From: a virus
Virus record (IMG/VR): IMGVR_UViG_3300035104_000006
Coordinates: 17,576-81,575 of that record
Length of the DNA: 64,000 bases
Reading direction: 5' to 3' (one strand)
Every line of letters begins with the position of its first letter. The first letter of the stretch is position 1. This document shows, one piece after another, positions 5,404 through 56,849 of this stretch. Made by a program: the position numbers and the translations under genes. The notes beneath the pieces are model-generated. The model saw only the letters and a list, made by a program, of their open reading frames with translations. It did not search any database and was not told where the DNA came from.

Positions 5404-6033
5404 ATGGAAAAGAATATAGTTGTGAGTTTGTTTGATTTCACTGGAGGAATGGTAGAGCCTTGGATGGATGCAGGGTATGAATGTTGGATAGTTGATATAC
5501 AACATCCGGAAGGTATCACTAATCATAAAAATCTTAATAAAGTTAATTTCGATTTATCCGAGCCTTGGAATCCCCCTTTTGACAAAGAAAAAATAGCATT
5601 TATTTCAGCATTCCCCCCATGTGATCATTTGGCTGTTAGTGGGGCAAGATGGTTTAAAGGGAAGGGGTTAAGAAAACTTGCTTATAGTATAAACTTATTT
5701 GCAACCGCTGCTGAGTTTTGTGAACAAAGTGAAGCTCCTTATATAATAGAAAACCCAGTAAGTACTATATCTACTTACTGGAGAAAACCTGACTACATAT
5801 TTCACCCCCACGAGTATACAAAATATTTCCCTGAGGATAATTATACTAAAAAGACATGTCTTTGGACAGGGAATGGTTTTAATATGCCTGAGCAGCTTAA
5901 AGATGAGACATTACCTGCACCAGATACTAAAAAGATACACCACGCTTCACCTAAAGATAGATCAAATATGCGAAGTATAACACCTGCCGGTTTTGCATGG
6001 GCAGTATTTGAAAGCAATAAAGCTACCGAATAA
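5404..6033 (+). CDS. short phage C5-cytosine DNA methyltransferase (Dcm-like)
   Basis: SLFDFTG (motif I), AFPPCDHL (catalytic PC), IENPVS (motif VI). Confidence 0.75.
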   Translation: MEKNIVVSLFDFTGGMVEPWMDAGYECWIVDIQHPEGITNHKNLNKVNFDLSEPWNPPFDKEKIAFISAFPPCDHLAVSGARWFKGKGLRKLAYSINLFATAAEFCEQSEAPYIIENPVSTISTYWRKPDYIFHPHEYTKYFPEDNYTKKTCLWTGNGFNMPEQLKDETLPAPDTKKIHHASPKDRSNMRSITPAGFAWAVFESNKATE

Positions 6034-29404: not shown

Positions 29405-29570
29405 ATTTGCTACAAATGAAGAAATACTAGAAGCCTTGGGAATATCTAATATAGATAATATATGCAAAGTCGAGATAATATTACTCCCAGAATGCTTACC
29501 TACTTTAAAAGTAACTCGGTATATTGACAATGCAGAAACTTTAACACAGTTCACAATTAGAAAAAGATAA
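29388..29570 (+). CDS. hypothetical protein
   Basis: Overlaps RNR stop. Confidence 0.45.
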   Translation: MSGDRKFATNEEILEALGISNIDNICKVEIILLPECLPTLKVTRYIDNAETLTQFTIRKR

Positions 29571-29614
29571 ACAAAAAGCCTCTACTACGAATATGTAGTA
29601 GAGGCTTTTTTGTT
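29570..29614. terminator. bidirectional terminator between convergent operons
   Basis: AAAAAGCCTCTACTAC-gaatat-GTAGTAGAGGCTTTTT. Confidence 0.9.
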
Positions 29615-29780
29615 ATTCTTTAGTAGAATCAAAATCAAACTCAGGCCACTCAGCCTCTCTTAACATGTCTTCAATTTCTGCGATAGTCATATTAGATACA
29701 TCATTATCACTAATATCTTTAATTCCTTTAATTACTTCTACTAAAACGGGTAGTAATTGTTTAATTAATTTAATATCCAT
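29613..29780 (-). CDS. hypothetical protein (55 aa, not in ORF track)
   Basis: Hand translation MDIKLIKQLLPVLVEV...DSTKE; GGAG RBS. Confidence 0.55.
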   Translation of the reverse strand: MDIKLIKQLLPVLVEVIKGIKDISDNDVSNMTIAEIEDMLREAEWPEFDFDSTKE

Positions 29781-44699: not shown

Positions 44700-45005
44700 A
44701 TGAAGCAAACAGTCACTAAAAGTATGTTCGTCGATGCATTCCAGGATATCCGCCCGGATAATTTCAGCCATAGCGGATTATCTGCTATGTATGACTATCT
44801 AAATGATTATGAAAGAGAGACAGGTCAAGAACTTGAGTTGGATGTTGTAGCAATTTGTTGTGACTTTTCAGAACATAACAATATTCTGGAGCTAGCAAAA
44901 GAGTATGGAGAAGAGTTTGACAACACAGCGGATGCACTAGAATGGTTACGTGAAAACACAATAGTAATAGAACATCCTAGTGGCATAATTATTCAGGACT
45001 TCTAA
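44700..45005 (+). CDS. conserved acidic phage early protein
   Basis: MKQTV...F.DAF...NFS..GL..YDYL..E...ELELDVVAICCDFSE family. Confidence 0.7.
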   Translation: MKQTVTKSMFVDAFQDIRPDNFSHSGLSAMYDYLNDYERETGQELELDVVAICCDFSEHNNILELAKEYGEEFDNTADALEWLRENTIVIEHPSGIIIQDF

Positions 45006-45061
45006 ACAGATTATCAGAGCACTACAGAATAATAGCTCTGTAGTGTTCTAATAGACTGTTT
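45004..45061 (+). other. long intergenic hairpin (family copy 1)
   Basis: ~25-bp stem; TTATCAGAGCA...GTGTTCTAATA. Confidence 0.7.
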
Positions 45062-45091
45062 AATCCATCATCACCAACAAAAAAGGAGTAA

Positions 45092-52668: not shown

Positions 52669-52697
52669 TTCACAAAAGCGACAAATAGTGATATAGT
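52669..52697 (+). promoter_or_regulatory. sigma70 promoter with extended -10 upstream of the cassette array
   Basis: TTCACA-17-TGn TATAGT. Confidence 0.6.
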
Positions 52698-52971
52698 AAA
52701 CCTAGATGATATCTTTTAGTTAGAGGCAACGAAATGAAAAAATGCTCATAATAGGAAATGTTTCAAATGCAGTCATAAAAGATTTAAAGAATATGGGGTA
52801 TGAAATAATTCGCTATAATTATGATCCTAAAGAGATTCTTGGTAAAGAGTTCGACTTAGTTTGGATTCGTGAACACATAACAAGCAAAAATAGAAAGGTA
52901 AGTTGAGTTGCGGTAAGCCGCCGAAGGCGGAGGTTTAAGGTTCAAGGTGTCAGGTCCAAGGTTAAAACCCA

Positions 52972-53028
52972 AAATAACCCTGCAATAAGCGGCGGCGATA
53001 GCCGTCCAGCTTGATTGCGTTGTTATAT
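52972..53028 (-). repeat. attC-like site 1 (57 bp)
   Basis: Minus strand: ATATAAC-AACGC-AATCAAGC...GCTTATT-GCAGG-GTTATTT, extrahelical C in L''. Confidence 0.8.
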
Positions 53029-53045
53029 GACACATAGGAGATAAT

Positions 53046-53822
53046 ATGATTAACTTAATGCTAGGCGATTGCCTCGAAAGAATGAAAGAAATACCAGATG
53101 GCAGTATTGATTTGACTGTTACAAGCCCTCCATACGATAACCTGCGTACCTACAATAACACGCTGGATTGGGGCGAACATGTTTGGAAGCCTGTGCTACA
53201 GGATTTGTTTAGAGTAACAAAGCAGGGTGGCGTTGTTGTTTGGGTGGTTGGGGATGCAACGATAAAAGGAAGCGAAACAGGGACGAGTTTTAAGCAGGCT
53301 TTGTATGCGAAAGATTGTGGGTTTAATTTACATGACACGATGATATGGAATAAAGGAAATTTCACAGCGGTTGGTGCATTGAAAACGTCTTACGCACCTG
53401 TATTTGAGTACATGTTTGTGTTTGGTAAAGGAAGGCCGAAAACATTTAGCCCTATCAAAGACCGCAAGAACAAACACTTTGGCGACAAATACCACCAAAC
53501 AGTGCGTCAGGCAGATGGTACAACAAAAGATGGCCACGGTAAGGGCAAGAAAAGAATTGCCGAGTTTGGCCAGCGGCACAATATCTGGTTTATTCACCCA
53601 GAACAAAGTAACTCTAAACGATGTCACCCAGCTCAATTCCCAGAGCAATTAGCACGCGACCATATTATATCTTGGAGCAACGAAGGAGACACTATACTAG
53701 ATTGTTTTATGGGTAGCGGCACAACCGGAAAAATGGCAAAGCAATTAAACCGCAATTTTATAGGTATAGAGAAAGATGAAACATACTTTAAGATTGCACA
53801 AGAGCGGATTGGTGTCATATAA
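53046..53822 (+). CDS. cassette 1: N4C/N6A DNA methyltransferase (beta class)
   Basis: GDCLE, TSPPY, HPAQFP, LDCFMGSGTT; stop TAA inside TAAC box. Confidence 0.9.
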   Translation: MINLMLGDCLERMKEIPDGSIDLTVTSPPYDNLRTYNNTLDWGEHVWKPVLQDLFRVTKQGGVVVWVVGDATIKGSETGTSFKQALYAKDCGFNLHDTMIWNKGNFTAVGALKTSYAPVFEYMFVFGKGRPKTFSPIKDRKNKHFGDKYHQTVRQADGTTKDGHGKGKKRIAEFGQRHNIWFIHPEQSNSKRCHPAQFPEQLARDHIISWSNEGDTILDCFMGSGTTGKMAKQLNRNFIGIEKDETYFKIAQERIGVI

Positions 53823-53882
53823 CGTTTAAGTTAAGTGGTTGCCGGGCAGTTTCGGCAATCCAACTTGAACGACTGGTTAGCC
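53817..53882 (-). repeat. attC-like site 2 (66 bp)
   Basis: Minus strand: GGCTAAC-CAGTC-GTTCAAGT...ACTTAAC-TTAAAC-GTTATAT. Confidence 0.88.
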
Positions 53883-53912
53883 ACCACAACCAACAATGTA
53901 AGGAGATTTAAA

Positions 53913-54209
53913 ATGGACAATGCACAAATTGAAATGCCGAAGTACAGAAGCCACAAGGAAGTATGGGCGCTTAAAATCGCTGATGTGAAAAAAGACAGCG
54001 ATATGGCTGCAAAAGAAAACCAGGAAACTGACGGAAGCGCAACGCTCGTTTTTGAAGATGGGCGGTATGCTCCCGTCAAAGTGCCCCACGATTACGTCCG
54101 CAAGCACAACCCACAGCCGGGCGGTTACTATGTAGTTTATAAGGATGGCTACAAGTCGTGGTCGCCTGCCGAAGCGTTCGAGTCAGGCTACGCCAAAATA
54201 AGCGGCTAA
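53913..54209 (+). CDS. cassette 2: conserved phage protein (GYYVVYKDGYKSWSP..AFE.GY motif)
   Basis: AAGGAG RBS; stop in GGCTAAC. Confidence 0.8.
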   Translation: MDNAQIEMPKYRSHKEVWALKIADVKKDSDMAAKENQETDGSATLVFEDGRYAPVKVPHDYVRKHNPQPGGYYVVYKDGYKSWSPAEAFESGYAKISG

Positions 54210-54303
54210 CCAATCGTTCACTTTGACCGGGAAAGCGGCGCGGTTCTTTGGCAGCTTGAAAATTCCGTTTCGCTTCCCCGGCAAGTGAACTCAACCGTTA
54301 GGC
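54204..54303 (+). repeat. attC-like site 3 (100 bp, canonical polarity)
   Basis: GGCTAAC-CAATC-GTTCACTT..CCGGG...CCCGG.AAGTGAAC-TCAACC-GTTAGGC. Confidence 0.82.
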
Positions 54304-54330
54304 GTACTCTATTTTTTGGAGGAAAGCAGA

Positions 54331-54588
54331 ATGGGATATTGCGTTTGTGGGGAAAGCAGCCCGATTTGTTTCTGTTCCGGGCAGAACGGGCGAGGCAAAA
54401 GCACGAAACAGTGGAAATATTTCGAGTTTGAGCAGTGCCCATGGTGCGGCAACGATATTGATGTATTGACAGATGCCCCAGTTGGATATGTACAGGACGG
54501 GGATGCTGTGCGGTGCGTCGATGCCAACTGCGGTTTCAGATCTAGTGTGTCTGTTGATGACGAAGAAATCTGGATTCAAGACGCATAA
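54331..54588 (+). CDS. cassette 3: Cys-rich zinc-binding protein
   Basis: GGAGG RBS; CPWC...C...C; stop in GCATAAC. Confidence 0.7.
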   Translation: MGYCVCGESSPICFCSGQNGRGKSTKQWKYFEFEQCPWCGNDIDVLTDAPVGYVQDGDAVRCVDANCGFRSSVSVDDEEIWIQDA

Positions 54589-54673
54589 CGACCATGTTAA
54601 GCGGTCGGTGGCTGATGGACGGAACACTAGAAGGCAGACGATGTATTCCATCCGCTTGAACTAATTGTTAGTT
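54583..54673 (-). repeat. attC-like site 4 (91 bp)
   Basis: Plus strand: GCATAAC-GACCAT-GTTAAGC...GCTTGAAC-TAATT-GTTAGTT. Confidence 0.85.
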
Positions 54674-54699
54674 TGAGCTGCTGAGAAGAGGAGAATTAC

Positions 54700-54909
54700 A
54701 TGAGAAAAACAGTATGTAAAAAATGCGGATCAAAGATTATTGAGAACGACAGAAACCCAAATGTGCATTACTCGAATCCACGAGAAATTTGCTGGCGGTG
54801 CGAAGCAGAAGAAGAAGCCCCAATAGGGGCGTGGCTGCAAAGAAAAGACGGATCATATTACCGAAAGCGGGGAGGACGACATGAGCAACCAATACGACAA
54901 CAAAACTAA
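54700..54909 (+). CDS. cassette 4 gene a: zinc-ribbon protein
   Basis: CKKC...CWRC; GAGGAG RBS. Confidence 0.65.
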   Translation: MRKTVCKKCGSKIIENDRNPNVHYSNPREICWRCEAEEEAPIGAWLQRKDGSYYRKRGGRHEQPIRQQN

Positions 54910-55141
54910 GCTACGGGACCTGATACCAAACGGAGACGGCTACAACAGCGAGTACGCAAACACGCTGGCAGAAGCCGCCGAATATATCGAGCGACTGGAA
55001 GATCGGCTGTTTGCCGCTGGCGCGATGGAGCAAGCGCCGTGTTTCTGCTGCGGGTACAACGGGCCTGGGTACTACCAGCCGGGCTCCCATCCGTGCGCGA
55101 AACGGCACCACGAACTGCGGCACGGCGTGAGCGAAATCTAA
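54881..55141 (+). CDS. cassette 4 gene b: phage hypothetical (CFCCGYNGPGYYQP..HPCA)
   Basis: GGAGG RBS; stop in ATCTAAC. Confidence 0.7.
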   Translation: MSNQYDNKTKLRDLIPNGDGYNSEYANTLAEAAEYIERLEDRLFAAGAMEQAPCFCCGYNGPGYYQPGSHPCAKRHHELRHGVSEI

Positions 55142-55205
55142 CGACAAAATCACCTACTGAATGGAGCGTAGCGGAATGAAGTCAGTGTGCATTTTTTTGT
55201 TGTGT
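55136..55205 (-). repeat. attC-like site 5 (70 bp)
   Basis: ATCTAAC...AATCAC..ACTGA/TCAGT GTG C ATT...GTTGTGT; GGAGCGTAGCGGAATG terminal structure. Confidence 0.65.
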
Positions 55206-55346
55206 GCTTTCCTGTGGGGGGCATACGCCATAAGACGACAAATCAGGCTGTACGGCTGGTCCTGGTGGCGGGTGCCGCTGGTCGCCGCCGTGAACACTGC
55301 GCTTTGGCCCCTGTGCATGGTGATTGCTATCATCAGAGGCGAATAG
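55161..55346 (+). CDS. cassette 5: small membrane protein
   Basis: Two hydrophobic stretches; start lies within attC 5. Confidence 0.5.
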   Translation: MERSGMKSVCIFLLCAFLWGAYAIRRQIRLYGWSWWRVPLVAAVNTALWPLCMVIAIIRGE

Positions 55347-55347
55347 C

Positions 55348-55408
55348 GCACAACAATTGAGTTAAAGCGCCGACTGAAAGGAGGTCGATTTTGAACGACT
55401 TGTTAGCT
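55348..55408 (-). repeat. attC-like site 6 (61 bp)
   Basis: Plus strand: GCACAAC-AATTGA-GTTAAAG...TTTTGAAC-GACTT-GTTAGCT. Confidence 0.85.
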
Positions 55409-55609
55409 CGGTTTGGCGACCGGGAAGAAACGATTTATAGCGCAGAATTGTATCTGTTACGCAAGATCGCAGAAACCAGCAGCGACATGGTGAAAGCCCG
55501 TGATTGGGAAGAATTTCGTGTTGCGTGTGGCGGACAGGAAAAGCTGGACAAAGCCCACGCGGATGCGCTGCGCGAATACGAACAATGGCTCTCTGATGGA
55601 GAGGGCTAA
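55391..55609 (+). CDS. cassette 6: hypothetical protein
   Basis: AAAGGAGG RBS and TTG start inside attC 6; stop in GGCTAAC. Confidence 0.6.
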   Translation: MNDLLARFGDREETIYSAELYLLRKIAETSSDMVKARDWEEFRVACGGQEKLDKAHADALREYEQWLSDGEG

Positions 55610-55679
55610 CAAGGAATCAGTTTCATAATCCTCAGATATTGTTACCTCCCCACTCTAGTGGAAGGAAAAGAGAATAATA

Positions 55680-56849
55680 ATGAATAAAGTGTATGTAGTT
55701 GATACAAATGTATTCGCACATGATTATCATGCTATTGACAATTTATCGTCTAAATCTGCAAGGATAGTAATTCCCTATGTCGTTCTGGAAGAATTGGATG
55801 GATTGAAAATCCGTCAGGATCAGACTGGGAGAAACGCCCGTCATGCAATACGAAGAATTGAAGAATTAGAAAAGAGCGGTAAAGTATTCATCGCTGATGA
55901 TCCAACAGATTACTGGATTAAAAATAATGATGATAAAATAATTGCCACTGCTGTTGATGAAAGTCGTGGAGTGGATCATAACAGGGTTATTGTTCTCTCT
56001 AAAGATATCGCTTTGCGTATCAAAGCGAAAAAACATTGTTTGGAAGTGCAGGATTATAAGAACGATAGAGTAGATTCGAACCATCTTTATTCCGGTTTCG
56101 GTCTGGGTTTTCCTAATGAACTAACTATCAAAAATGGAAAAGTGGTAGATTCAGTTTCTGGCTCAGAACTGGCAAAAATAAATCCATCCGGCTTATTCGC
56201 TGCAAATATCAAACAGCAGGTTGCAATACATCATTGTATGAACAGGGAAATTCCGTTAGTAAGTCTAGTCGGGGCTGCCGGAACTGGTAAAACACTGGTC
56301 GCCATAGCTTGTGCACTAGAGGCAATAGAATGGGGGCTTTATGACAAAATAACTATCGCTCGTCCGATAATACCATTTCAGAAAGATATTGGCTTCCTTC
56401 CAGGCGATGTAGACGAAAAAATCCTGCCGTGGTTTGCGCCTATTCGTGACAACCTAAATTATCTATTCAATATCGCCGATCAAGACAGTGAAGAAAAGAA
56501 ACGTGGAAAACGGGAGCCATATGAAGAACTTGTCGACCTCGGAATTATCGAGTTTTGTCCATTAACTTATATTCGTGGTCGTTCTCTAGCTAGACAGATA
56601 ATCATTGTTGATGAATGCCAAAACGCAACTCCTAGTGAGCTTCGTACTATCCTAACACGAGTAGGAGAAGGTAGTAAGATAATTCTAACTGGAGATTACA
56701 CACAAATTGACAGTCCGTATTTATCCAGCGATACTAATGGATTGGTGTATTGTGTAGAACGGTTCAAGGACAGTGAATTGTCTGCACACGTTACACTTAC
56801 AGAATGTAAAAGATCAGAACTGGCTAGAGAGTCTGCGGAGAGGTTGTAG
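55680..56849 (+). CDS. phoH: PIN-PhoH protein (copy 2)
   Basis: VDTNV PIN, GAAGTGKT, GFLPG, RGRS, DECQ, GDYTQID. Confidence 0.92.
   Translation: MNKVYVVDTNVFAHDYHAIDNLSSKSARIVIPYVVLEELDGLKIRQDQTGRNARHAIRRIEELEKSGKVFIADDPTDYWIKNNDDKIIATAVDESRGVDHNRVIVLSKDIALRIKAKKHCLEVQDYKNDRVDSNHLYSGFGLGFPNELTIKNGKVVDSVSGSELAKINPSGLFAANIKQQVAIHHCMNREIPLVSLVGAAGTGKTLVAIACALEAIEWGLYDKITIARPIIPFQKDIGFLPGDVDEKILPWFAPIRDNLNYLFNIADQDSEEKKRGKREPYEELVDLGIIEFCPLTYIRGRSLARQIIIVDECQNATPSELRTILTRVGEGSKIILTGDYTQIDSPYLSSDTNGLVYCVERFKDSELSAHVTLTECKRSELARESAERL

Follow-up and report, generated by a model that had tools for sequence, protein, structure and literature searches.

A probable integrase-less cassette array in a T5-like phage record, with genes antisense to most of its attC sites

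The DNA analyzed here, which we refer to as the window, is a stretch of 64,000 nucleotides corresponding to bases 17576-81575 of the 114,484-bp IMG/VR virus record IMGVR_UViG_3300035104_000006, which is 87% complete by CheckV and whose replication genes are of the T5-like phage type. Our subject is an island at ~52902-55610 of the window that holds seven open reading frames (ORFs), all on the plus strand, as initially annotated, and six imperfect palindromes, each lying between plus-strand ORFs, that resemble attC, the recombination site of integron gene cassettes. The island differs from its surroundings in composition, with a GC content of 43-50% between 53 and 56 kb compared to ~33-39% around it (48% for the island itself, and 33% and 39% for its flanks). 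A PIN-PhoH gene follows the island, and the array sits in an early or accessory operon of the phage. A search of window positions 52700-55700 against the GenBank phage collection gave no match.

To score the palindromes, we used R1, a covariance model (with rough E-values) built from 26 diverse bona fide bacterial and class 1 attC sites whose top-strand orientation was set by arrays and ORFs, and ran it without filters over the full 64 kb. Its six top-scoring matches were exactly the six palindromes, designated s1 to s6. Four of these matches are on the minus strand, namely s1 (52972-53028; 22.4 bits, E 0.006), s2 (53817-53882; 47.9 bits, E 8e-9), s4 (54583-54673; 31.3 bits, E 5e-5), and s6 (55348-55408; 31.1 bits, E 6e-5), whilst s3 (54204-54303; 23.0 bits, E 0.004) is the sole site of plus polarity and gave nothing on the minus strand. 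The last, s5 (55136-55205), is a degenerate, attC-like element with a weak minus-strand score of 10.8 bits (E 3). No R1 match above 10 bits was obtained on the opposite strand at s1-s6, and nothing better than 16 bits in the remaining ~50 kb of the 114-kb record. When R1 was applied to eight held-out bacterial arrays as a control, all matches fell on one strand per locus. The initial annotation had read s1, s2, s4, and s6 as canonical on the minus strand and s3 as canonical on the plus strand, and both assignments held; its count of five inverted sites out of six is clear for four, with s5 minus in a weak sense only.

The anatomy of the sites points the same way. Like class 1 (aadA1) and Xanthomonadales-type arrays, the island has sites of the form R''-5 nt-L'' with an extra C ... 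L'-6 nt-R', hybrid R boxes, and a G|TT crossover. On the minus strand, s2 is fully canonical (GGCTAAC-5 nt-GTTCAAGT ... ACTTAAC-6 nt-GTTATAT), as are s4 (AACTAAC-5 nt-GTTCAAGC ... GCTTAAC-6 nt-GTTATGC), which has the same L boxes as the aadA1 attC, and s6 (AGCTAAC-5 nt-GTTCAAAA ... TTTAAC-6 nt-GTTGTGC). All three have the 5-nt and 6-nt spacers and the extra C at position 4 of a GTTCAAG-type L''. Site s1 has equal spacers and C, T, and A bulges on its minus-strand 5' arm, and s3 has 5/6 spacers, T and A bulges on its plus-strand 5' arm, and a fully paired L box. The boxes of s5, ATCTAAC and GTTGTGT, each match neighboring boxes at 6/7 positions. All six sites have AAC...GTT boxes, and the L boxes are paired in s1-s4 and s6. 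As a reference, the aadA1 attC was found at 100% identity in 1,962 plasmid records, just 3' of aadA1 on the coding strand and with intI1 upstream and divergent.

In a second test, we employed a scanner that scores spacer asymmetry and the side on which bulges lie. Applied to known class 1 attC sites, it called the coding strand as top strand in 11/11 cases, with scores of +2 to +4. In the window, s1 (+3), s2 (+4), and s4 (+2) were called minus, s3 (+3) was called plus, and s5 was ambiguous; s6 was assigned to the minus strand by eye. Since boxes in arrays are hybrids, a cut-off of at least 5/7 for R-box complementarity failed to detect s2, s4, and s6 and was relaxed. Folding energies, which had been proposed earlier as a means of overturning the polarity assignment, are about equal on both strands of the sites and give no polarity, whereas R1 and the scanner do separate the strands.

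The first cassette gene encodes an N6/N4 DNA methyltransferase (53046..53822; PF01555, E 8.5e-46; phrog_67), the TAA stop codon of which lies within the left box of s2. It is an orphan enzyme and probably acts in anti-restriction. ORF2 (53913..54209; 98 aa) belongs to a widespread phage family, phrog_11049 (E 1e-27), with 97 relatives in viral contigs, and most of the best 80 of these 97 have no attC nearby. It is located between two inward-facing attC bodies (s2 minus, s3 plus), just as had been described for the second cassette at the outset. ORF3 (54331..54588; 85 aa) is Cys-rich and zinc-ribbon-like, and has homologues in six viral contigs (L413-L418). ORF4 (54700-54909; 69 aa) and ORF5 (54881-55141; 86 aa) overlap, with no attC between them according to R1, and make up a two-gene cassette (54700..55141). 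ORF6 (55176..55346; 56 aa) is hydrophobic and starts within s5. ORF7 (55391..55609; 72 aa) ends with a TAA stop codon inside a lone R' box at 55604..55610 (plus-strand GGCTAAC, equivalent to minus-strand GTTAGCC), which terminates the array and would be its integration-proximal end in minus polarity. Homologues of ORF7 occur in seven viral contigs at 79-96% identity, some with s6 and some without. No family match was found for ORF3-ORF7 in NCBIfam, Pfam, or PHROGs. With cassette limits set just behind the AA in every left box, the minus-polarity cassettes are 52978-53822, 53823-54209, 54210-54588, 54589-55141, 55142-55353, and 55354-55609. The textbook layout, in which the ORF shares the attC top strand and precedes its own site, is found for ORF2 and s3 only.

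Traces of recombination are evident in the boxes. Where the right box of one site faces the left box of the next across an ORF segment, the two are complementary at 7/7, 7/7, 6/7, 6/7, and 6/7 positions, and the right box of s6 matches the lone GGCTAAC box after ORF7 at 6/7; the two boxes within a single site are complementary at only 3-6 of 7. Hybrid R boxes are the expected trace of a crossover inside the boxes, although they give no polarity alone, because both polarities predict them. Three of the contigs that share cassettes with the window (L413, L415, and L416) are informative in this respect. In these, the body of s6 (40.1 bits in these contigs) and then ORF7 follow immediately on the end of ORF3 (...GACGCATAAC), and the contigs lack window positions 54589-55353, that is, s4 with ORF4/5 and s5 with ORF6 (cassettes 4 and 5). 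The deletion breakpoints are the plus-strand left boxes, which correspond to the minus-polarity R' boxes. This is exactly the product expected if s4 and s6 recombine at the minus-strand R' (G|TT); under plus polarity, the body of s4 would have been kept. The unit that moves is therefore an attC together with the gene that follows it. The breakpoints at the predicted G|TT and the hybrid boxes would be indirect signs of recombination by an integron integrase, which prefers the bottom strand. In L413, the right box of s6 reads GTTAGCC and is perfectly complementary (7/7) to the terminal box after ORF7. Site s4 is also present in L417 and L418.

Other features likewise associate each attC with the gene to its right. 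Within s6, the loop contains GGAGG and the right arm, read on the plus strand, supplies the first six codons of ORF7; ORF6 begins inside s5; an attC homologous to s1 (with TTGATTGCGTTGTTATA in common) immediately precedes a methyltransferase gene of 70% identity in contig L344; and the array opens on the left with a complete attC and closes on the right with a lone R' box, as insertion in minus polarity predicts. From these sequence comparisons, we take the attC to belong with the gene that follows it on the plus strand.

We consider it likely that ~52902-55610 is a cluster of attC sites lacking an integron integrase (CALIN), in which s1-s6 are genuine IntI-type attC substrates and six integron-type cassettes carry genes antisense to most of the attC sites. 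With the top strand of s1, s2, s4, s6, and, weakly, s5 being the minus strand of the window and the genes being on the plus strand, the mobile unit would be an attC plus the following gene on the coding strand. In this reading, each gene's stop codon falls within the R' box of the next site, and in two cassettes a ribosome site or start codon is inside the gene's own attC. Units would be gained or lost through canonical bottom-strand recombination at the G|TT of the minus-strand R'. A PF00589 search of the whole 114,484-bp record found no tyrosine recombinase, and no attI was recognized in the record. The locus does not, therefore, combine intI, attI, and the promoter beside the integrase (Pc) as a complete integron does, but has five significant attC sites within 2.5 kb in a record with no PF00589 match, as expected of a CALIN. 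Because the record encodes no integrase, one would have to act in trans, either from a host integron or from a co-infecting phage.

Gene expression would then depend upon read-through from a phage promoter, rather than Pc. A sigma-70-like candidate is present on the plus strand at 52669..52697 (TTCACA-17-TATAGT with TG; 10/12 matches), upstream of a small phage ORF (52742-52906) and directed into the island. It is conserved in two relatives of the phage (L329 and L330), and a promoter scan returned no strong promoter-like site other than this phage-type one, at the far end of the array. It is likely to drive transcription rightward across the array. Between the small ORF and s1 there is a GC-rich leader (49%; 52902..52977, no strand assigned) with a hairpin, GCGGTAAGCCGCC; an attI-like role for the leader (52902-52978) could not be shown. 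A 27-nt stretch of it is present identically in L417 and L418 (1034-1060). In L417, the leader copy is followed by a repeated ribosome-binding site (RBS) motif, GCCGTGGAAAGGATAG.

Three relatives of the phage (L329, L330, and L332) are 87-98% identical in the upstream phosphoesterase protein, and none has an attC; overall, their identity to the phage is put at 91-97%. The flanking DNA of L329 is 94-97% identical to that of the window, and its homology ends at 52901, 77 nt before s1, inside the GC-rich leader. No exact empty site was found among L329, L330, and L332, in which other indels differ, or among PhoH relatives. The six cassette-sharing contigs (L413-L418) have a GC content of 46-56%. 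We infer that the array was assembled by an integrase in a pool of GC-richer phages, and that it probably reached the AT-rich phage as a block via ordinary phage mosaic recombination. It would be part of a cassette pool common to co-occurring phages. In L332, another GC-rich gene without an attC lies elsewhere in the same accessory region (5700-6005), and GC-rich imports are therefore not always cassettes. An RBS and start motif, GAGAAGAGGAGAATTAYATGAGAAAA, is located at homology breakpoints in the window (54682-54709), L332 (6015-6050), and L417 (960-987), where the adjoining genes are otherwise unrelated. The conserved RBS and ATG at these breakpoints suggest that genes are also shuffled at their boundaries, by a second mechanism in addition to attC recombination.

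Site s3 makes s2, ORF2, s3, and ORF3 one composite unit in minus polarity. Its presence needs either a top-strand event (or a double-strand target), or the non-IntI joining of array segments of opposite polarity. Top-strand insertion of a unit consisting of ORF2 and s3 at s2 was considered and rejected, as it predicts an order of attC bodies opposite to that observed. Insertion of s2 with ORF2 at the box beside a resident s3 fits, but only shifts the puzzle one step back. A search of viral contigs with an exact 20-mer of s3 gave no match.

To place the orientation of the array in context, we screened contig collections from viruses and bacteria with a single polarity-specific pattern, TAAC-N5-RTTCAAG-N20-50-CTTAAY-N6-GTT; all survey counts that follow are among the matches listed for the two collections. 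A call was decisive when an ORF of at least 50 aa ended -15 to +40 nt from the R'' on the top strand (co-oriented) or from the R' on the bottom strand (inverted). Pattern sites were co-oriented in 15 and inverted in 38 viral cases, compared to 119 and 4 bacterial cases (14 and 33 versus 113 and 4 after dereplication). When all scanner sites were included, the counts became 16 co-oriented and 56 inverted in viruses and 140 and 11 in bacteria (Fisher p 7e-27), or, per locus, 10 and 40 versus 51 and 3 (p 8e-16). The 40 inverted loci out of 50 in viruses also depart from a 50:50 expectation (binomial p 2e-5). These data suggest that inversion is the usual layout in phage DNA, at ~80% of decisive loci, but a rarity in bacteria (~5%). 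Since 57/61 viral arrays are uniform in polarity, the mixed array of the window is unusual. A strand-summed measure of ORF length (28 viral arrays co-oriented, 15 inverted, and 18 unclear) was dropped as unreliable, because long spurious ORFs cross the sites in loci of 60% GC.

Loci fetched through their proteins, and hence unbiased as to attC strand, gave the same picture. All 7 nearby R1 matches of methyltransferase homologues (4 loci), the single lineage of ORF2 homologues with nearby R1 matches, and all attC matches near ORF7 homologues are inverted. When 20 ORFs abutting inverted viral sites were tested, 13 matched known families and are therefore taken as real phage genes. DNA-modification domains account for seven of the 20 (L121, L145, L132, L101, L149, L139, and L201), comprising two N6/N4 methylases, two C5 methylases, two Mom-like proteins, and one methyltransferase-domain protein; the rest are two RNA ligases, a Mu-type portal, a phosphohydrolase, a DUF6475 protein, and a Ros/MucR-type regulator. 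In phage TJE1 (NC_019930), however, three attC sites at 244-1519 (28-31 bits) are on the same strand as the genes, so that its published CALIN is of the canonical type and inversion is not universal. Phage P12002L gave no significant R1 match.

The initial annotation had raised the possibility of a distinct phage-adapted cassette class. That idea gains support from the contrast between viral (40/50) and bacterial (3/54) decisive loci, the uniformly inverted lineages retrieved through proteins, and indel breakpoints located as minus polarity predicts; TJE1 limits it, as a rule for all phages. In its broadest form, the proposal would be that phages keep their own mirror-image cassette pool, with antisense genes and the recombinogenic strand as the coding strand, in which units rich in genes for DNA modification and other forms of counter-defense are exchanged via integrases supplied in trans or encoded by phages, and which is largely closed to bacterial integrons. 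We regard the arguments for and against such a pool as evenly balanced. The same holds for the associated idea that phage genes are seen entering the pool, as exemplified by ORF7, whose first codons are overlaid by a fused attC in some contigs but not in others. If such a pool exists, its cassettes would be silent in bacterial integrons.

Several points weigh against reading the island as a working, inverted CALIN. Site s5 is not significant alone, and both R1 and the scanner were self-built, in place of IntegronFinder's curated model. The survey used simple longest-ORF calls, left most sites undecided, and ascertained its sites by a single attC subtype. The IMG/VR contigs include bacterial integrons, with IntI homologues at six viral loci, two of which (L092 and L097) have the look of ordinary integrons of the bacterial type. 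The opposite polarity of s3 is not a product of canonical cassette insertion. Some homologues of ORF7 and ORF4 have no attC and there are gene-boundary breakpoints at RBS and ATG motifs, which together imply a second shuffling mechanism acting on the same genes. Finally, no integrase, attI, or host is known for the phage, so that activity of the array here is a prediction only.

Given that the relatives differ by many indels and offer no exact empty site, the array may have come by non-IntI recombination and be inert here. In one version of this idea, the phage would carry the array passively, as a relic taken over in one piece from a phage of higher GC content through homologous or illegitimate recombination at gene-boundary motifs, with its polarity set elsewhere and no integrase action in this host. 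The end of L329 homology 77 nt before s1, within a leader shared with L417, would suit such an import, as would the other breakpoints at conserved RBS and ATG motifs and a record without intI. However, the sites are well preserved (48 bits for s2), and cassettes have been reshuffled individually among contigs from sample accessions of one number series. We regard a relic as possible, but on balance doubtful. It is compatible with the inverted CALIN as to how the array was built and differs on present activity only.

The initial annotation also suggested that polarity might match the strand exposed during phage replication, and this is plausible by analogy. In an adaptive form of the idea, the attC bottom strand, being on the coding strand, would be on the lagging-strand template if forks follow transcription, such that attC sites fold frequently and cassettes turn over fast. 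In the Vibrio cholerae integron, folding and the rate of excision depend on which DNA strand carries the attC bottom strand, and excision rises sharply when bottom strands are on the lagging-strand template (PMC11023631), albeit in a bacterial chromosome with a known direction of replication. The excess of inverted viral loci (40/50) is in line with selection of this kind. On the other hand, insertion at attG sites in E. coli is free of bias as to strand, replication, or transcription (bioRxiv 10.1101/2022.09.11.507474), and TJE1 is co-oriented. Founder effects in a closed phage cassette pool without Pc would also explain the bias. Adaptive inversion strikes us as unlikely.

Two further explanations carry very little weight. 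That these are ordinary plus-polarity cassettes, in which each ORF travels with the attC after it and the asymmetry of bulges and spacers has no functional meaning, would agree with the position of every ORF stop codon in or beside a plus-strand xxxTAAC box, with box complementarity across ORF segments that fits both polarities, and with the near-equal folding energies, but it is highly improbable in the face of R1 scores of 22-48 bits on the minus strand versus <10 on the plus strand at s1, s2, s4, and s6, the s6 rather than the s4 body beside ORF3 in L413, L415, and L416, and the starts of ORF6 and ORF7 inside the attC to their left. Equally remote is the idea that the palindromes are phage regulatory hairpins (terminators, or elements of RNA stability or processing) that merely resemble attC, for although the sites are intergenic within an operon and other hairpins ending in AAC...GTT exist at 29566-29618 and 45001-45064, those two hairpins have no bulges or unequal spacers and are unscored by R1, whilst the six sites fit a model trained solely on bacterial attC sites, have hybrid boxes and a cassette-sized indel with box-to-box breakpoints, and are absent from the results of an intrinsic-terminator scan. 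The hairpins at 29566-29618 and 45001-45064 have perfect stems and look like terminators.

CALINs in virulent phages, with methyltransferase cassettes prominent, have been published (Qi, Rajabal, Ghaly, Tetu, Gillings 2023, Front Microbiol, PMC9892861), and passages of that paper report that phage attC sites recombine with attI1, the bottom strand better than the top, that the attC sites of TJE1 were validated experimentally, and that attC directions diverge in phage P12002L. The array described here is like those CALINs in having attC sites without intI in a lytic-phage setting together with a DNA methyltransferase cassette. The same passages contain no comparison of attC polarity with gene strand, and the crossover position and the contrast in orientation between phages and bacteria go beyond them. 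TJE1 is co-oriented by R1, unlike the window, where genes are antisense to 4-5 of the 6 sites. Our full-text literature searches found no paper presenting genes that run antisense to attC as characteristic of phage arrays.

Sedentary chromosomal integrons hold reverse-oriented cassettes, for example, toxin-antitoxin cassettes with their own promoters. The window resembles these in having ORFs antisense to the attC top strand, but such reversals are a scattered minority (11/151 decisive bacterial sites in our survey), whereas in the window the whole array is reversed and transcription from outside is needed. Compared to canonical integrons, the differences are the genes on the bottom strand, the lack of intI, attI, and Pc, the phage promoter, and the opposite polarity of s3. 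Integron cassettes are defined as a gene followed by an attC and read from a promoter beside the integrase, and the array reverses the genes of this arrangement. It touches on the open questions of where cassettes originate and how they move outside bacteria. If our reading is correct, phages would own a dedicated gene-swapping system for accessory and counter-defense genes, and correct limits of phage cassettes would require polarity-aware annotation. The reversed phage design often bears DNA methylases and Mom-like modification genes.

The forms of ORF7 with and without an attC offer a handle on gene-to-cassette conversion. Codons 1-6 of ORF7 (55391-55408) coincide with the right arm and box of s6, and attC-less homologues (1500-1520 in both L414 and L417) have another N-terminus, MRHNRLLV.... 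These variants may be a snapshot of a phage gene turning into a cassette. In L344, two tandem ORFs of 258-262 aa occupy positions 622-2310, the second being the methyltransferase homologue, with the s1-like inverted attC between them. An identical ACCAACTAGCCACCAAAA tail comes after each of these ORFs.

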